IMG/VR virus record: IMGVR_UViG_2703718819_000016
Strand: one strand, 5' to 3'
Origin: a virus
Taxonomy: Duplodnaviria; Heunggongvirae; Uroviricota; Caudoviricetes
Length of the DNA: 5,412 nt
The first letter of the stretch is position 1. Every line of letters starts with the position of its first letter. Shown one piece after another: positions 1 through 5,412 of the stretch. The notes below the pieces were generated by a model. That model worked only from the letters and a program-made list of their open reading frames with translations. It was not told where the DNA came from and did not search any database. Position numbers and translations under genes: made by a program.

Positions 1-642
1 CGCTTCCACGGCGTTATTGATTACGCGCTTGCTGAAAGTGGCCCTGTGCTCTGAATAGATCGCCACCATTTCGCGGCTAAGTTCCATTGTGCTGACCGGA
101 CACCATACCCCGCCGCGCCATACGTGAACGATTTCACTTTCAGGATGTACGCAAACGCCATCAAAGCGATCGGCAAGCAGCTGCGCGCGCTCACTGTCCG
201 CCATCTGCGAAAGTTGCACCTTTTGCTTTACCGGAAGCTCAATGACCAGACCATCAGAAAGATTCTGGCGCTCACGGGCCAGATATTCGCGCCAGTTCTC
301 CACCTTCTGACCGTGCATACCATCAGGGTAAAAATTTGCATCCTGTACGCCTGCCGCCGCCAGCTTCTGGCCAATCGCCTTTATCATTACTGGCGCAAGA
401 TATCCGGCCCTGAATATGCGCACGGATTTTCTGCCTTCCGGCACAATTTGCAGCTTATCCAGTTCTGATAACTGCTGCTCCCCAAGCCACACAGGAGGCT
501 CATTATCTCCGGCCATACGCGCATCATGTTCCTGCCATTGTTTCGCGTGTGCCCAGGCATCACTACCCGCAAAAATAATGACTTCTGTTCCTTTGTGTTT
601 TATGCCGCGTGACTGCTGTTTTACGTTCGGTGCCAGTTTCAT
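1..642 (-). CDS. Putative replication protein (primase-like, in the position of P4 alpha); N-terminal 214 codons only, 3' end lies beyond the window start
   Basis: Minus-strand frame is open from ATG at 642-640 to position 1 with no stop (MKLAPNVKQQSRGIKHKGTEVIIFAGSDAWAHAKQW...). SD AGGGG lies 6 nt upstream inside the preceding gene, and the ATG overlaps that gene's TGA (ATGA). Absent from the ORF track because it has no stop in the window. The function is inferred from position at the end of the early operon, not from a recognised catalytic motif. Confidence 0.6.
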   Translation of the reverse strand, partial: MKLAPNVKQQSRGIKHKGTEVIIFAGSDAWAHAKQWQEHDARMAGDNEPPVWLGEQQLSELDKLQIVPEGRKSVRIFRAGYLAPVMIKAIGQKLAAAGVQDANFYPDGMHGQKVENWREYLARERQNLSDGLVIELPVKQKVQLSQMADSERAQLLADRFDGVCVHPESEIVHVWRGGVWCPVSTMELSREMVAIYSEHRATFSKRVINNAVEA

Positions 643-1400: not shown

Positions 1401-1614
1401 AACCCCCCCCATTTTCACAATCAGCAACAAGAATATTTTTAGCGTCATTCAGCGACCGCGTTGCGATGTATCGGATACATTCCAGGGCGAACTGTGTCCG
1501 GTCTTTCTGTTCTTCTCCCTGCGCAAGCTCTGCAGTGCATTCAATATCGATAAGCGCGTGCATCAGCGTAGTGAGCGCGGCGGCTGCTGCGTCCGGTGTG
1601 GTTTTATTGTGCAT
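1393..1614 (-). CDS. Hypothetical small protein (73 aa); start trimmed from track ORF 1393..1644 to the ATG at 1614-1612
   Basis: ATG at 1614-1612 has a strong SD (AGGGGGA, 6-nt spacing) embedded in the last codons of the upstream gene. The frame ends at TGA 1393-1395, just after the G8 tract. Confidence 0.55.
   Translation of the reverse strand: MHNKTTPDAAAAALTTLMHALIDIECTAELAQGEEQKDRTQFALECIRYIATRSLNDAKNILVADCENGGGYA
1403..1410 (-). repeat. Homopolymer tract: C8 on plus strand, G8 in the minus-strand mRNA, at the junction of two overlapping small genes
   Basis: Direct reading: aaCCCCCCCCatt at 1401-1413. Confidence 0.9.
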
Positions 1615-2071
1615 AGGTTTCCCCCTGACGAATACGGGCGACAAAAATCAGATGTGCGTGCGGCAGCTGCGCGCGTGCTTCGCGCTCAGTGGCAGCCGTG
1701 ACGGTGTAAATATCAATGCTGCTGTGGTGGCACTGCATAAAGCGCCAGACAAAGTAAGGGCGTGCGGATACGGCCATGTGAAAGGCTCCCAGATGAATTT
1801 TAAGGAGTCTCGCTACTACGCTGTCAAACATGGTGGCGAGACGTAACAGGGTTGACAGACTGGTCATCTGGAAACCAGCGAGCACAAAGGCTCCCCCGTT
1901 ACGCCCCGCCATAATGCGGGTATGGGTAGGTTTACGGACACAAAAAAACCGCTTATCGGATGTGGGCGGCTGTCCGCCAGATGTATTCAGGCTGTCAAAC
2001 CCGGTCGCCATGTGGGCGACGGGGGAAGCATACAGCCCCGTGATAATTTTTTGCAAGCGGTTTTTACGCAT
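1604..2071 (-). CDS. Two-part protein (155 aa): unique N-terminal ~100 aa fused in frame to a C-terminal ~55-aa domain paralogous to the 65-aa protein upstream (FVWRF...TEREAR...ARIRQG); possibly Ash-like plus Icd-like
   Basis: ATG at 2071-2069 with SD AGGGG; track ORF 1604..2113 trimmed to this start. The C-terminus PYFVWRFMQ...TVTAATEREARAQLP...LIFVARIRQG aligns with 2064..2261. An internal ATG (MAVSARPY) retains a GGGAGCC SD homologous to the RBS of 2064..2261. The family names are from memory and unverified. Confidence 0.6.
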   Translation of the reverse strand: MRKNRLQKIITGLYASPVAHMATGFDSLNTSGGQPPTSDKRFFCVRKPTHTRIMAGRNGGAFVLAGFQMTSLSTLLRLATMFDSVVARLLKIHLGAFHMAVSARPYFVWRFMQCHHSSIDIYTVTAATEREARAQLPHAHLIFVARIRQGETYAQ

Positions 2072-2261
2072 GATGTGACCCCTGGCGAATACGGGCGGCA
2101 AATACAGCAACACAACCGGACGGGCAACGGTTACGCGCTTCGCGTTCCGTCCAGGCGGTTACGTGGATGATTTGAGATTCTCCGGCACTCAGTGCCAGAA
2201 AACGCCACACAAAGGCCGTTTGTGTGTGTACAAGGTGTGGTATATGATTTACAGCAACCAT
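2064..2261 (-). CDS. Small protein (65 aa) with FVWRF...TEREAR...ARIRQG motifs; first gene of the leftward early operon; possibly Icd-like
   Basis: ATG at 2261-2259 with strong SD (AGGAG, 6-nt spacing). It is the paralogue of the C-terminus of 1604..2071 and its stop overlaps the next start (ATGCGTAA). The Icd-like call is from memory and needs a database check. Confidence 0.65.
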   Translation of the reverse strand: MVAVNHIPHLVHTQTAFVWRFLALSAGESQIIHVTAWTEREARNRCPSGCVAVFAARIRQGSHHA

Positions 2262-2330
2262 AACGGCTCCTAGTTTACGTTGTTGGTTAGAAGCCCCGTT
2301 ACTGCTCCTACAGTGCGGGGTTTCGTCGTT
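2217..2330. repeat. Copy 1 of a ~115-bp diverged direct repeat covering the leader, RBS and first ~15 codons of the leftward operon
   Basis: Shares cgtttgtgtgtgta (2217-2230), ccataa and ttggttagaagccc (2283-2296), followed by a GC hairpin, with 2963..3080 in the same order and orientation. Confidence 0.7.
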
Positions 2331-2350
2331 TCTACACCTTGCCTTAATAA

Positions 2351-2404
2351 GGTGTTGAACACCAATTTAAATCGAGGTGTTAAACACGTCAAGTGTTGAA
2401 CACT
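2351..2404. promoter_or_regulatory. Three palindromic operator-like sites (GGTGTTGAACACC 2351-2363, GGTGTTAAACAC 2376-2387, AGTGTTGAACACT 2392-2404) overlapping divergent promoters
   Basis: Three copies of the inverted repeat GTGTT-N-AACAC lie between the leftward operon (start 2261) and the rightward RHH gene (start 2454). Candidate leftward promoter: -35 TTGACG (2392-2387), 17-bp spacer, -10 TAAATT (2369-2364). Candidate rightward promoter: -35 TTGAAC (2396-2401), -10 CATACT (2419-2424). Confidence 0.6.
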
Positions 2405-2453
2405 TATTTTTTTTCCTGCATACTGCATTTGTTTTTTATGAGGGGTGCTCAAC

Positions 2454-2633
2454 ATGGCGACAAAAGCAGTAAACGCAAAATCACAAACAGTTGCGGCAAG
2501 GGTTCCACATGAAGTTATGAACAATGTTGAGGCGGTAAAAATGCCCGGCGAAAGTACAGGGCAGTTTGTTACAGCTGCATTAAAGCGGGAAGTTGAATAC
2601 CGCCAGCGCCGCAAGACCAAAGAATCAGAATAA
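2454..2633 (+). CDS. Arc/Mnt-type ribbon-helix-helix DNA-binding protein (59 aa), candidate repressor of the adjacent operator cluster
   Basis: ATG at 2454 with SD GAGGGG 8 nt upstream (the track's GTG at 2445 sits inside the SD). The RHH pattern is QTVAARVPHEVMNNVEAVKMPGESTGQFVTAALKREV (beta strand, helix, G-x-S turn, helix). It is divergent from the operator-containing promoter region. Confidence 0.6.
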   Translation: MATKAVNAKSQTVAARVPHEVMNNVEAVKMPGESTGQFVTAALKREVEYRQRRKTKESE

Positions 2634-2690
2634 TCACCATCAGCGCCGTGGTGTGAGGAACTCCGGCGCATTGCTTTACAGGGCAGTACC

Positions 2691-2918
2691 ATGACCAACA
2701 ACACACTATCACCAATACAAGACACGCAGACGCAAGATGATGAAATCATCCGGCAAAGGCAGTCAGAAGCCTGCGCCAGACTTGAGGAAGAACTAACCAG
2801 AACAAAAATACCACCACCAGCGCCGCGCTTAGTGCCACCAGAAAAATTTGCCCTTGAAGATTTTGTCGATAAATACCCACGGCGGCTTAAATCCGGCAAA
2901 AACCGACCGCCAGGATGA
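2691..2918 (+). CDS. Hypothetical protein (75 aa): acidic, helical N-terminal half and proline-rich C-terminal half
   Basis: ATG at 2691 with a weak SD (AGGG, 8 nt). It follows the RHH gene after a 57-bp gap containing a GC hairpin (2643-2669). No recognisable domain; it uses several rare codons (AGG, AGA, CTA, ATA). Confidence 0.35.
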   Translation: MTNNTLSPIQDTQTQDDEIIRQRQSEACARLEEELTRTKIPPPAPRLVPPEKFALEDFVDKYPRRLKSGKNRPPG

Positions 2919-2962
2919 GTGCACAAAACCGAACTCTGAAACGGATTATTCCGTTTCCGGGG

Positions 2963-3080
2963 CGTTTGTGTGTGTATAAAGAGTAAGCTATGCTCTTTTA
3001 TAGCCATAATCTTTACCTCAATTAATGGTTTGGTTAGAAGCCCGTTGGTGTTCATAGCGCCGGCGGGCTTTGCTTTTTGT
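2963..3080. repeat. Copy 2 of the ~115-bp diverged direct repeat; carries a relic start (ATG 3007-3005, MAIKEHSLLFIHTQT) homologous to the N-terminus of 2064..2261
   Basis: cgtttgtgtgtgta at 2963-2976 and ttggttagaagccc at 3030-3043. The minus-strand translation from 3007 gives MAIKEHSLLFIHTQT, against MVAVNHIPHLVHTQT for the intact gene; similarity is lost beyond ~2960. Confidence 0.65.
3038..3080 (+). terminator. Hairpin (stems 3038-3044 / 3064-3070) followed by a T-rich tract; possible intrinsic terminator for the upstream plus-strand genes
   Basis: aagcccg...cgggctt stem with a 19-nt loop, then tgctttttgt. The T-run is interrupted, so strength is uncertain. Confidence 0.4.
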
Positions 3081-3089
3081 GTTGATTGT

Positions 3090-3123
3090 ATGTAATGTGT
3101 CACCACACATAAATACATTACAT
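3090..3123. promoter_or_regulatory. 9-bp inverted repeat ATGTAATGT (3090-3098) / ACATTACAT (3115-3123) flanking TGTGTCACCACACA; candidate operator of the second RHH gene
   Basis: A perfect 9-bp inverted repeat with a 16-bp spacer lies immediately upstream of the SD and start of 3138..3317. Confidence 0.5.
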
Positions 3124-3137
3124 GAGGTGTAATTAAC

Positions 3138-3317
3138 GTGTCAACACACAAAAACGAAAGGCGTGGTAATCCTCCGTTCCAGTTCCGTTTAGATCCTGAC
3201 TTACGGGAAAAGATGGAAAAGGCACAACAACATGACGGCGATGATTCTCTTGCTGCCTGGATAAAGCGAATAATCCGCAAAGAATTACAGCAACGCGGCA
3301 TAGAACCCAAAGGGTAA
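3138..3317 (+). CDS. Arc/Mnt-type ribbon-helix-helix repressor-like protein (59 aa, GTG start)
   Basis: GTG at 3138 with SD GAGGTG 7 nt upstream. PPFQFRLDPDLREKMEKAQQHDGDDSLAAWIKRIIRKEL closely follows the Arc/Mnt pattern (P-x-F-x-F-R...L-R-E-K...G-x-S...I). The translation-initiation region is homologous to that of 2454..2633. Not in the ORF track, probably because it is below the length cut-off. Confidence 0.55.
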   Translation: MSTHKNERRGNPPFQFRLDPDLREKMEKAQQHDGDDSLAAWIKRIIRKELQQRGIEPKG

Positions 3318-3412
3318 TTACATTGCCCACCAGCCTGATAGCGGCTATCATTCCCGTGCTTATGTTTGGGATCACATACACATAAGGCGCAGCAGGTTAA
3401 TTGTTCACAAGG

Positions 3413-3440
3413 GCGTTCCGGCAACGGGGCGCTTTTTGTT
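3413..3440 (+). terminator. Intrinsic terminator-like hairpin (gcgttccg-gcaa-cggggcgc) followed by TTTTTGTT
   Basis: 8-bp stem with two G-T wobble pairs and a 4-nt loop, then a T-run. It lies ~95 bp downstream of the 3138..3317 stop and between the convergent genes 3138..3317 and alpA. Confidence 0.5.
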
Positions 3441-3467
3441 ATGTTCATCGTGTTATGCCTCACACCA

Positions 3468-3674
3468 TTACGCAGCCGTTCCGCGTGCTTCCTGCTCACG
3501 TTCTTTCATCCATGCGATTACGTCTTCCTCATACCATCCGCGACGGCGTAAACCAACGCGAAAACCCTGCGGAAATTCTCCGGCGTTGATCATGCTTTGA
3601 AGCGTGCTGTCTGCCTTGATGTGGATAAGTTTTTTTACTTCCTGGCGAAAGATGACTTTTTTGATTGCTTCCAT
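3468..3674 (-). CDS. alpA: AlpA-family phage regulatory protein (helix-turn-helix; excision and transcription regulator)
   Basis: 68 aa, IFRQEVKKLIHIKADSTLQSMINAGEFPQGFRVGLRRRGWYEEDVIAWMKERE, matches the AlpA/Vis family pattern (E-V...S-x-x-T-I-x-x-x-I-x-x-G-x-F-P...W-x-x-x-E-V-x-x-W). ATG at 3674-3672 with SD AAGGT. Typical position downstream of a P4-type integrase. Confidence 0.85.
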   Translation of the reverse strand: MEAIKKVIFRQEVKKLIHIKADSTLQSMINAGEFPQGFRVGLRRRGWYEEDVIAWMKEREQEARGTAA

Positions 3675-3780: not shown

Positions 3781-3807
3781 TATGTTGGTGATTTGAAAGG
3801 GATTTAT

Positions 3808-3841: not shown

Positions 3842-4093
3842 TTACCGCCATTTTTTTGGCCTGCCTCCGGTCTTCATGGTTGCCGGACGAACTACCCTGT
3901 CGATACTTTCAGCCATATTCCTGGATGCCCCACGGGATACCAGGAAATCTACTACCTGTTTTTTTGATGGGGCCGTCGTTCTGTCCTCCGGATCGTAGGT
4001 TGACCAAAATTCATGCTGAACCATCAGGGCCAGTTGCAGCCCGTCGCAATTGCATCTGAAATTTTTTTGCATCTTAACGGTTTCATGTTTCAC
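3842..4093 (-). CDS. Hypothetical small protein (83 aa from GTG 4093, or 76 aa from ATG 4072); basic C-terminus with an AT-hook-like GGRPKK
   Basis: Minus-strand ORF between the integrase stop and the terminator at 3808-3830. Protein-like composition (…KKQVVDFLVSRGASRNMAESIDRVVRPATMKTGGRPKKWR). Weak SD at either start. Preferred over the overlapping plus-strand ORF 3793..4059, which is Pro/Cys-rich and has no terminator. Confidence 0.45.
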   Translation of the reverse strand: MKHETVKMQKNFRCNCDGLQLALMVQHEFWSTYDPEDRTTAPSKKQVVDFLVSRGASRNMAESIDRVVRPATMKTGGRPKKWR

Positions 4094-4170: not shown

Positions 4171-5412
4171 CTAAACGGCTCGGATACCCCTTTTACCACT
4201 GGCGAGGGTTACGCCCGTCGCCGCAGCCTCGACAAATTCGCCCCACCAGCGCATAAGCACCACGCGTTTTTCTATGTAGTTGCTCCGGTTGTATGCCCGT
4301 CTCACTTCGTTAGTGTCGACGTGGGCAAGTGCGGCCTCGATTACGTCCGGCTCGAATCCTTCCTCGTTCGCTGCTGTACTGAATATGGCGCGTAATCCAT
4401 GAGACACCAGCACGCCAGCGAACCCCATGCGTCGTAATGCTGCGTTTGCTGTCTGGCTGTTCATTGGCTGCCGTGGGTCTTTCAGACTCGGGAAAACATA
4501 ATCGCGGTGGTGGCTGATTGGTTTCATGGCCTCCAGCACCGCCATAGCCTGACCGGAAAGTGGGATAACGTGATCCCTGCGCATCTTCATGCGTCCGGCG
4601 GGTATCGTCCAGCGTTGCGCGTCCAGGTCGATTTCATCCCACCGCGTTGATGACGCTTCGGCGGGACGGGTTACGGTCAGTAACTGCCATTCAATCAGTA
4701 ATCTGGTCTGCCGTTCTGTTGCCGATACTGATAAAGCCTGCATAAGCTCCGGCAACTGTTCGGGGCGGATTGTTGGCATATGTTTTTTTACAGGGGAGGG
4801 GAACGCCTTACGCACATTCATAGCCGGATTGGCATCAATCAGCCCACTGTTGGCGGCGTAATCCATTACCTCATTAACGCGCTGTAAAACCCGTTTGAGT
4901 GTTTCCAGGTTGCCGCGCTCCTTGATGGGGGTAAGCACCTCAACGAACCTGCGAGCGGTCAGGGTGTCTATTGGGGTGTTGCCGATGAACGGGAATACAT
5001 ATTTATCCAGCGATCGCCAGATGTCTTTAATCGTGTTGGGGGCCAGATTCTGGCTGATTTTCACCTGGTACCATGCCGCCGCCACATTTTCGAACGTGTT
5101 CCCTTGTCTTCGGGCCTCTGCCTCTCGTTTTTTCTTCTCATGGCCCTGCGGGTCAGTTCCGGCACTGATTAACGCTCTGTACTCGCTACGGCGTTTTCTG
5201 GCATCAGCCAGGGAAACATCATCAAGCGATCCAAAACTCAGCAATATTCTTTTTTTGTCCGATGGCCGGTAGTAGGAAAATCGCCAGAGTTTTGATCCGG
5301 ACGGTTTGACCAGGAGAAAAAGCCCTCCGCCGTCCTGTAGGGTGTATTCCTTTTCCGCTGGTCTGGCTGCTTTGATCTGCACCGTGGTTAATGGGGGTGT
5401 TTTTCTCGCCAT
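4171..5412 (-). CDS. int: P4-type tyrosine integrase (site-specific recombinase, IntA-like), full length 413 aa
   Basis: The N-terminus MARKTPPLT...GSKLWRFSYYRP matches the P4/CP4-57 IntA arm-binding region. The C-terminus has catalytic-domain hallmarks (…LLTVTRPAEA…RDHVIPLS…HGLR…VRRAYNRSNY). The start ATG is at 5412-5410, the window edge. Confidence 0.95.
   Translation of the reverse strand: MARKTPPLTTVQIKAARPAEKEYTLQDGGGLFLLVKPSGSKLWRFSYYRPSDKKRILLSFGSLDDVSLADARKRRSEYRALISAGTDPQGHEKKKREAEARRQGNTFENVAAAWYQVKISQNLAPNTIKDIWRSLDKYVFPFIGNTPIDTLTARRFVEVLTPIKERGNLETLKRVLQRVNEVMDYAANSGLIDANPAMNVRKAFPSPVKKHMPTIRPEQLPELMQALSVSATERQTRLLIEWQLLTVTRPAEASSTRWDEIDLDAQRWTIPAGRMKMRRDHVIPLSGQAMAVLEAMKPISHHRDYVFPSLKDPRQPMNSQTANAALRRMGFAGVLVSHGLRAIFSTAANEEGFEPDVIEAALAHVDTNEVRRAYNRSNYIEKRVVLMRWWGEFVEAAATGVTLASGKRGIRAV

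Follow-up and report, generated by a model that had tools for sequence, protein, structure and literature searches.

A truncated icd gene start at the seam of stacked repressor cassettes in a probable PICI-type satellite, possibly kept as a translated start within a stop-free antisense frame

The 5,412 nucleotides (nt) of IMG/VR virus record IMGVR_UViG_2703718819_000016 (Caudoviricetes), which we analyzed at full length and call the window, are probably the early region of a phage satellite of the phage-inducible chromosomal island (PICI) type from Escherichia or a close relative. Between its two stacked repressor cassettes, A and B, lies the start of an Icd/Kil-like gene that breaks off after 15 codons and that we call the relic. 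The whole truncated copy measures 118 bases (window 3080-2963, minus strand) and consists of leader, ribosome-binding site and the first 15 codons. The initial annotation had extended it over 2919-3080; 3080-2963 is indeed such a copy, and 2919-2962 is filler that lies outside it. Sequence comparison leaves the origin of the relic as a truncated icd start well supported. Its current function we infer, and here we lean, if only slightly, towards a seam of stacked cassettes that would be kept as a translated start in a frame escorting transcription, by analogy with eta/kil of P4. The segments concerned are the following.

2963..3007, minus strand: relic, first 15 codons MAIKEHSLLFIHTQT of an Icd/Kil-like gene, ATG at 3007-3005
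3016..3019, minus strand: Shine-Dalgarno (SD) sequence GAGG of the relic, 8 nt upstream of the ATG, the same in intact type-II alleles
3030..3043: TTGGTTAGAAGCCC in the relic leader, its core TTGGTTAGA common to nearly all leader alleles (51 distinct units)
2963..2976: CGTTTGTGTGTGTA, a (TG)5 tract, the last segment common with intact genes
2919..2962: junction filler of 44 nt between the stop of the open reading frame (ORF) ORF75 and the TG tract, with an inverted repeat GAAACGGA/TCCGTTTC at 2938-2957
2064..2261, minus strand: Icd65, intact Icd/Kil-like gene of 65 amino acids (aa), first of the minus-strand operon (NF033153, E=5e-18)

Two exact 14-mers link the relic to the 5' region of Icd65, TTGGTTAGAAGCCC at both 2283-2296 and 3030-3043 and CGTTTGTGTGTGTA at both 2217-2230 and 2963-2976, and they are collinear between the two with an offset of 1 nt. 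Local alignment of the relic region (copy B, 3095-2919) with the resident one (copy A, 2345-2064) gave a score of 38, which none of 2000 shuffles reached (16.9 +/- 2.3). This alignment ends 2-3 bases beyond the TG tract, confirming the recombination junction that the initial annotation had placed there. Similarity past the tract was not significant (p = 0.057), nor was that between the 31 coding bases of the relic before the tract and the resident Icd65 (p = 0.35). At the protein level 6 of 15 residues of the relic peptide are equal to those of Icd65 and 8 of 15 to those of the allele of E. coli PKF4; after HTQT the relic frame reads PRKRNNPFQ..., which is unrelated to Icd. We rejected the filler as a diverged icd continuation with a swapped hairpin (GCGTTTTCTGGCACT vs CGGTTTTGTGCACT), the p value being 0.057 and the best local alignment lying elsewhere.

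Families of the window proteins were assigned with Pfam, NCBIfam and PHROGs and RNA families with Rfam at E <= 1. The relic is not a member of the Icd-like family, as only codons 1-15 are kept and the 48-position NF033153 domain (residues 17-60 of Icd65) is absent, and the 392-aa frame that contains the relic has no NF033153 match. Rfam matches in the whole window were confined to 1829-2033. None fell in 2919-3140, and the relic and its leader match neither the C4 (RF01695), the c4-a1b1 (RF03163) nor the isrK (RF01394) model. What distinguishes the relic from intact alleles is mainly a set of changes at 2975-3015 that create inverted repeats, TATAAAGAG...CTCTTTTATA and, around the ATG, TAAAGAGTA/TAATCTTTA; both are absent from intact genes. 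In those genes the TG tract is the 5' arm of a hairpin, CACACAAAC-N4-TTTGTGTG. Within codons 12-22 of Icd65 (2226-2206, minus strand, tail to 2196) this is a terminator-like hairpin, CACACAAAC-GGCC-TTTGTGTG, with GCGTTTTCTG after it, and the codons CAC ACA CAA and TTT GTG TGG are near-invariant at synonymous sites in more than 40 alleles. The hairpin may be a translation-sensitive attenuator; the relic retains its 5' arm only.

The relatives tell where the relic came from. E. coli PKF4 carries an intact gene (locus L007 of the related islands, MAVKQHTPRLAHTQTAFVWRF...) whose leader matches that of the relic at 68 of 70 positions and whose first coding bases match at 34 of 44 nt (p < 0.0004 in both cases). 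The operator and Arc-like gene of cassette B (3330-3081) are identical at 232 of 237 positions to a Shigella flexneri island (L010), in which this operator/repressor stands directly upstream of intact Icd65. Judged by these identities, the relic came from another allele, of type II, and entered with the second cassette; the resident first gene is not its source. The proposal that 3007-2963 is homologous to the start of an icd gene with its leader is thus borne out by the 14-mers, the shuffle test and the L007 match, while the idea that it derives from the first gene of the operon itself has to be given up. The initial annotation had raised two doubts about itself, whether the resemblance extends to the nucleotide level and whether an intact arrangement exists in related elements. 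Both are answered in its favour by the matches to L007, where the coding part aligns and leader and gene stand together, and to L010, where the operator/repressor precedes the intact gene.

Related islands carry a single cassette (L001 from O157:H7, L004 and L006-L008), two cassettes with the relic between them (the window, L002, L005 and L009) or, in E. coli UC4315 (L003, 3247-5113), three cassettes in which the relic junction occurs twice (relic ATGs at 3800 and 4541). The single-cassette relatives part from the window at the ORF75 stop: the end of ORF75 reads ...CCGCCTGGCTGAtagccttgtccacc in single-cassette islands and ...CCGCCAGGATGAgtgcacaaaacc..., followed by the 44 nt and the TG tract, in stacked ones. 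The junction, that is ORF75 stop, 44-nt filler, TG tract and relic, is not private to the window and was present in 111 of 5,426 complete E. coli genomes. Every match to the filler in these 111 genomes runs on into the TG tract and relic, and no other genomic source of the filler was found among the 5,426 genomes. The relic occurs at >=95% identity in about 110 E. coli genomes. No genome among the 5,426 carries the window unbroken; in mosaic relatives the coverage is 75-89%. On the right of the junction, hairpin, operator and repressor vary between copies, and on the left there are two diverged ORF75 alleles. Because the filler is joined to the relic in all 111 genomes, the seam reads as a single old event whose product later spread and was reshuffled. 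In the window the Arc-like gene runs straight into a conserved segment, attgcccaccagcctgatagcggc (3318-3345). An extra gene of 67 aa (MTNKESTNTPSQ...) follows the Arc-like position in L002 (4243-4510), L003, L005 and L009; cassette B of the window has therefore lost, or never had, a second gene.

Conservation sets the relic apart from its surroundings. A core of 100 nt (2937-3036) is about 100% identical over 13 distinct contexts, and over the same contexts identity is 80-89% in ORF75, about 80% in the hairpin and 43-65% in the operator/repressor, with a range of 43-84% when hairpin, operator and repressor are taken together. The core is the most conserved stretch of the region, better conserved than the neighbouring coding gene ORF75, and intact icd genes vary freely over the codons that match those of the relic. 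GAGG, the 8 nt and the ATG are kept in every relic copy. By this measure the relic is not decaying. The earlier description of stranded debris does not fit a segment with an invariant core that retains its SD, its ATG and an open frame of 245 codons.

This frame is part of a much longer one, which runs on the minus strand from alpA to icd through the genes listed here.

2270..3448, minus strand: stop-free relay frame, 392 codons from ATG 3448 to TAG 2272-2270
3468-3674, minus strand: AlpA-like gene (PHROG E=1e-7; Pfam E=0.003, below cut-off)
3138..3317, plus strand: cassette-B repressor gene, Arc-like ribbon-helix-helix, 59 aa (PHROG 228, E=3e-6; weak YlcI_YnfO_N match)
2691..2918, plus strand: ORF75, second gene of cassette A, hypothetical protein in the annotation of relatives
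2454..2633, plus strand: cassette-A repressor gene, YlcI/YnfO family ribbon-helix-helix, 59 aa (NF041551, E=2e-16)

The ATG at 3448 lies 19 nt after the alpA stop and 9 nt downstream of an SD sequence, GAGG (3461-3458); the open stretch itself extends from 3505, inside alpA, to 2273. The frame is antisense to all three of the small plus-strand genes that sit between alpA and icd, and it crosses both operators, both leaders, the terminator hairpin and the relic, whose ATG at 3007 is in phase with it and leaves 245 codons before the TAG. The TAG overlaps the AGGAG SD of Icd65 and is found 8 nt before the Icd65 ATG (2261), which is in another frame. In the alpA-icd interval 398 of 402 codons are stop-free; 2000 dinucleotide shuffles gave a mean of 101.5 and never more than 238. 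The same holds in relatives. Each of the 10 annotated loci has one minus frame with 0-6 stops, while stops number 3-49 in the remaining five. A profile search with the Icd alignment gave 3 loci in genome contigs and 80 in IMG/VR, and long stop-free chains are present in nearly all of these 83 further loci, measuring 240-607 codons in nearly every related island (L001-L092). The relic ATG is in this stop-free frame in every locus; in L002 the frame coming from upstream ends next to the SD of the relic, and a new open frame starts at the relic itself. In single-cassette islands the stop-free frame is fused in frame to the Icd gene.

The plus-strand cassette genes are all in the phase in which the wobble positions of both strands coincide. 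Among 19 distinct plus-strand proteins, antisense stops numbered 0 in 1,313 codons in this phase and 80 and 49 in the other two; as a control, other genes of the window show 1-6% stops in the same phase. The cassette genes have good SD sequences and, for the YlcI/YnfO and Arc-like genes, family matches; ORF75 has no family in Pfam, NCBIfam or PHROGs. Nor does the minus-frame product have one in these three collections. It is rich in Cys, Ser and Arg, nonsense-like in composition, and its sequence changes wholesale when a cassette is swapped. Since the plus-strand genes are real while the minus-frame product is nonsense-like and without family, selection appears to act on the openness of the frame, that is on its translation, and not on a protein. 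The stop-free frame suggests in turn that the putative antisense transcription across 2454-2918 is a selected feature and not an accident. In RefSeq/PGAP parts of the frame appear as an "Icd-like protein" pseudogene (L001, 3339-3932) and as a 246-aa hypothetical protein that starts in the hairpin loop (L009, 2353-3093, MNTNGLLTKPLIEV...); both annotations are probably artefacts that the open frame produces.

A cassette is made up of a terminator hairpin on the plus strand, an operator and its promoters, and a small gene for a ribbon-helix-helix repressor; some cassettes have a second small gene as well. The hairpins of the two cassettes are found in the leaders.

3037..3081, plus strand: intrinsic terminator, 16-pair stem with G-U pairs (stem-loop 3037-3071), then GCTTTTTGTG; fold z = -3.9
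2283..2336, plus strand: copy A leader motif and plus-strand terminator hairpin

The initial annotation had counted the hairpin as part of the relic leader. The leader is homologous, as it stated; the hairpin belongs to the other strand. At TTGGTTAGA it folds with -26.3 kcal/mol on the plus strand vs -12.9 kcal/mol on the minus strand, and the plus-strand fold is favoured in 35 of 38 alleles by a mean of 6.2 kcal/mol. The consensus fold of 19 alleles has 13 pairs, 3 of them with compensatory double changes, and many stem pairs are G-U, which on the icd strand would give C-A mismatches. A T run comes after the stem, and the terminator scan calls a plus-strand terminator here; a G+C-rich stem-loop with T run on the plus strand is the form of a Rho-independent terminator. 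Plus-strand stability, G-U pairs with compensatory changes, and the T run therefore make it a plus-strand terminator and not a minus-strand leader structure. It lies 119 nt past the ORF75 stop and therefore would end the YlcI-ORF75 transcript before cassette B. A second terminator-like hairpin with a T run (3409-3436, plus strand) follows cassette B ahead of the 3' end of alpA, inside the minus open frame.

Minus-strand promoters could be placed upstream of both icd starts.

3117..3144, minus strand: putative promoter PB, TTGACA (3144-3139), 16 nt, TGTAAT (3122-3117), read by eye
3090..3123: perfect inverted repeat ATGTAATGT-N16-ACATTACAT, overlapping the PB -10
2364..2392, minus strand: promoter-like site PA, TTGACG-17-TAAATT (2392-2364), among three AGGTGTTGAACAC repeats, called by the scan

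The promoter that had been presumed upstream of the relic is therefore plausible from the by-eye TTGACA-16-TGTAAT, and at the position of PB L002 and L003 read TTGACA-16-TATAAT. The putative -35 of PB overlaps the GTG start of the Arc-like gene, and the inverted repeat ATGTAATGT-N16-ACATTACAT is a candidate operator, likely that of the Arc-like protein. Three direct repeats AGGTGTTGAACAC at 2350-2403, each internally palindromic (GTGTT-N-AACAC), overlap PA; these repeats (GTGTTGAACAC) are likely the operators of the YlcI-type repressor. A plus-strand non-coding segment, gatagcggctatcat.cccgtgcttatgtttgggatca.atacacataaggcgcagc, shows strong conservation among islands whose cassettes differ (window 3350-3395; L001 3725-3795) and reads CALCV(C/Y)DPKHKHG(N/D)DSRYQAGGQC in the minus frame.

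The system that the window resembles most in these respects is eta/kil of P4. According to the passage of PMC10111431 that summarises Forti et al. (1999, J Bacteriol 181:5225), P4 eta contains a constitutive promoter and Kil is a truncated Eta; by the same passage full-length Eta is translated only from the upstream late promoter, coupled to the alpA homologue, and Eta translation prevents termination. In the P4 sequence a 199-codon ORF (8767-8168) overlaps (ATGA) the stop of vis/ORF88, the alpA homologue, covers the isrK-like (seqA) and C4 (CI RNA) matches and ends as the 65-aa Kil. P4 Kil is of the same family as Icd65 and Icd57, the second Icd-like gene of the window, since all match NF033153 (Kil with E=1.6e-21). 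It was the family hidden Markov model that settled this relationship: BLASTP and hhalign against P4 Eta/Kil gave weak similarity only, no direct sequence similarity to Eta was seen outside the Kil domain, and tblastn of Icd65 against phage genomes found vB_KppS-Ant only and not P4.

1984-2033, minus strand: c4-a1b1 target (Rfam)
1829-1916, minus strand: C4 antisense (immunity) RNA (Rfam)
1604-1777, minus strand: Icd57, second Icd-like gene, 57 aa (NF033153)

Both in P4 and in the window an alpA homologue is followed by a long ORF with an internal promoter, putative in the window, and by a 65-aa protein of the Icd/Kil family at its end. The P4 start next to the stop of the alpA homologue has its match in the ATG at 3448, 19 nt after the alpA stop, and both elements have an ORF of this kind that encloses a C4-type RNA together with its target (window 1604-2113; P4 8168-8767). 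In P4 kil is nested in eta, just as a short gene is nested in frame in a long one in single-cassette relatives; such nesting of a short Icd gene was found in L001, L004-L008 and the window ORF 1604-2113 with Icd57. The long frame of the window differs in ending at the TAG within the Icd65 SD, unfused. Unlike the 199-codon ORF of P4, it also runs antisense through complete repressor-cassette genes and is longer (one to five genes and 300-600 codons in the family); moreover, Icd65 forms an additional Icd-like tier ahead of the window's eta/kil homologue. The latter is the 169-codon ORF 2113-1604 (minus strand), which covers the c4-a1b1/isrK-like target (1942-2033) and the C4 RNA and ends as Icd57; its open stretch reaches 2158, overlapping the 3' end of Icd65. 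This ORF is the direct counterpart of P4 eta/kil. By analogy, the frame through the cassettes would be an extended upstream tier of the eta/kil design, and the anti-termination role, which is that of P4, is assumed for the window on the same basis, the stop-free frame lending it indirect support.

Two further comparisons bear on the relic. In the immI operon of P1/P7 (c4, icd, ant) blocked icd translation reportedly causes polar termination (Biere, Citron and Schuster 1992; Riedel et al. 1993). There, too, a first gene of the Icd family gates downstream transcription, and the window likewise has a C4 RNA and a1b1 targets; the relic differs in belonging to a separate tier, putatively under protein-repressor control, with no C4/a1b1 match. 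Mosaic boundaries in lambdoid phages and satellites are often built of short conserved "linker" segments that flank exchangeable cassettes. The invariant segment of about 100 nt between exchangeable cassettes and diverged ORF75 alleles is of this kind, but it is itself a truncated gene start with SD, ATG and open frame, next to a terminator.

Taken together, the reading towards which we lean would work as follows. Transcripts starting at the alpA promoter or at the putative PB would run along the minus strand through the cassettes, and ribosomes translating the stop-free frame behind RNA polymerase would prevent premature (Rho-type) termination over 0.7-1.2 kb of antisense RNA that would otherwise go untranslated. 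Downstream of PB the first SD and ATG that ribosomes meet would be those of the relic, a part that kil plays in P4 downstream of PLE, and the TAG in the Icd65 SD would hand the ribosomes to Icd65 by termination-reinitiation. With 740 nt of antisense sequence bridged in this way, PB could drive the icd/replication operon, and stacking would put the operon under two repressor-controlled promoters. Read-through of the minus strand would oppose expression of the cassette-A repressor, and the hairpin in the relic would serve the other strand by ending the YlcI-ORF75 transcript ahead of cassette B. More tentatively, and with some doubt on our side, we suggest that a relay frame of 300-600 codons is kept open antisense to complete, functional repressor genes in satellites of this family, that its product is irrelevant and its sole role to let translation accompany read-through from alpA or distal promoters into the icd/replication operon, and that cassettes are stacked like beads, each with a re-priming icd start.

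Several points weigh against a translated start with such a role. Once both cassettes are open, continuity of the frame over the junction is a 1-in-3 chance, and the relic may be invariant because it spread recently and is used as a recombination linker, rather than through selection on function. PB was read by eye only: its -10, TGTAAT, lacks the A at position 2 that the promoter scan demands, so it was not called. The rut-like (C-rich, G-poor) composition is weak, a single 78-nt window (2600-2523) having C/G >= 2, and the frame is not fused to Icd65, unlike in single-cassette relatives and in P4 eta/kil. Finally, as the minus-frame product is nonsense-like and without family, selection would have to act on translation itself, which would be unusual.

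These points lead to the chief alternative, which we consider rather unlikely: that the relic is a neutral scar, debris of the illegitimate recombination that stacked the cassettes, without present function, its invariance due to recent horizontal spread and to repeated homologous exchange via the linker, and the continuity of the frame inherited from two cassettes already open, plus a 1-in-3 accident at the seam. One identical junction in all copies speaks for a single origin and favours a scar; the flanks differ by cassette replacement and not by point divergence, the Icd domain is lost (NF033153 starts at residue 17 of Icd65), and the relic holds no Rfam family. A scar does not account as readily for a core that is more conserved than ORF75 over 13 contexts, diverged ORF75 alleles included, for an SD, an ATG and 245 open codons in every copy, or for the L002 relic, whose start sits exactly between the end of one open frame and the next. 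That the resemblance to icd is due to chance can be regarded as already refuted: although the 31 coding bases ahead of the tract show no significant likeness to Icd65 (p = 0.35), the two collinear exact 14-mers, a score reached by 0 of 2000 shuffles and a leader identical at 68 of 70 positions to an intact allele leave this practically no weight.

Alternatively, the region could encode a cis-antisense small RNA of about 85 nt on the plus strand, directed against the SD and ATG and ending at the terminator, comparable to P22 sar or IS10 RNA-OUT. Its promoter would be a weak one in codons 5-15, TTGTGT (in the TG tract)-17-TATGCT, with TATGAT in copy A, and the relic would be a complete RNA gene, which would explain why the copy extends from TG tract to hairpin. 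We regard this as improbable, though it does not exclude the other readings. In its favour, the plus-strand terminator is conserved even in single-cassette islands with no other plus-strand gene upstream, the spacing TTGTGT-17-TATGMT is constant in all alleles, and the predicted fold is a stem-loop exposing the anti-SD followed by the terminator (z = -3.7 to -5.5). However, the -35 matches at 3 of 6 positions and the promoter scan finds no plus-strand promoter there; the synonymous invariance of CAC ACA CAA is explained equally well by the mRNA hairpin CACACAAAC/TTTGTGTG, and the terminator by an insulator on every mobile cassette. There was no Rfam match, and no antisense RNA at Icd-like genes was found in the literature searched. 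Very improbable, in our view, is an ordinary protein gene at 2270-3448 of which the relic would be merely an internal part. Its absence of stops in all relatives and the PGAP annotation of parts of it (the hypothetical protein of L009 and the Icd-like pseudogene of L001) would fit. Against this stand the lack of a family match, the nonsense-like composition, the replacement of its sequence with each cassette swap opposite plus-strand genes that have family support and good SDs, and its passage through promoters, operators and a terminator hairpin.

If the relic were a scar only, it would still be a clean marker of cassette stacking and exchange in satellites, useful for annotation but ordinary. 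The relic as such is a variant of known satellite mosaicism; more interest attaches to the stop-free antisense relay frame. A frame of this kind would extend the eta/kil principle of P4 to antisense overlap with whole genes, and a relay through it would explain the odd "Icd-like pseudogene" and hypothetical-protein annotations, the single phase common to all small plus-strand genes and the way in which PICI-type satellites could combine several repressor-controlled inputs. If true, the replication operon would be under two or three independently inducible switches and open to a wider range of helper signals.

The rest of the window agrees with a satellite of this type. Beside the features given above and several small ORFs on the minus strand, it contains the following.

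4171-5412, minus strand: tyrosine integrase, annotated in relatives
3842-4093, minus strand: ORF of 83 aa
639-938, minus strand: DUF4222 gene
1-642, minus strand: start of a replication gene, RepA helicase or primase in relatives

The gene order is thus int, AlpA-like, YlcI/YnfO, Icd-like genes, DUF4222 and then the RepA-helicase/primase gene, and related islands are annotated alike. In Gram-negative PICIs int, alpA and pri/rep have the same orientation, the element is about 10-17 kb long and packaging needs a helper phage; the int-alpA-pri/rep organisation was reportedly described by Fillol-Salom et al. in 2018. The window has the tyrosine integrase, the AlpA-like gene, DUF4222 and the start of the replication gene, the late region lying outside it, and is like these islands in its int-alpA-pri/rep-type order, to which the stacked repressor cassettes and the relic are added. 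Neither of these additions was described in the literature that we searched on Gram-negative PICIs, and a literature search for the function of YlcI/YnfO gave nothing specific. AlpA, Icd and YlcI/YnfO are listed in PICI-type elements (PMC13612085). Elsewhere in the window, a C8 run at 1403-1410, read as G8 on the coding strand, precedes the ATG at 1400 by 2 nt and is possibly a slippage-prone tract or an unusual ribosome-binding site.

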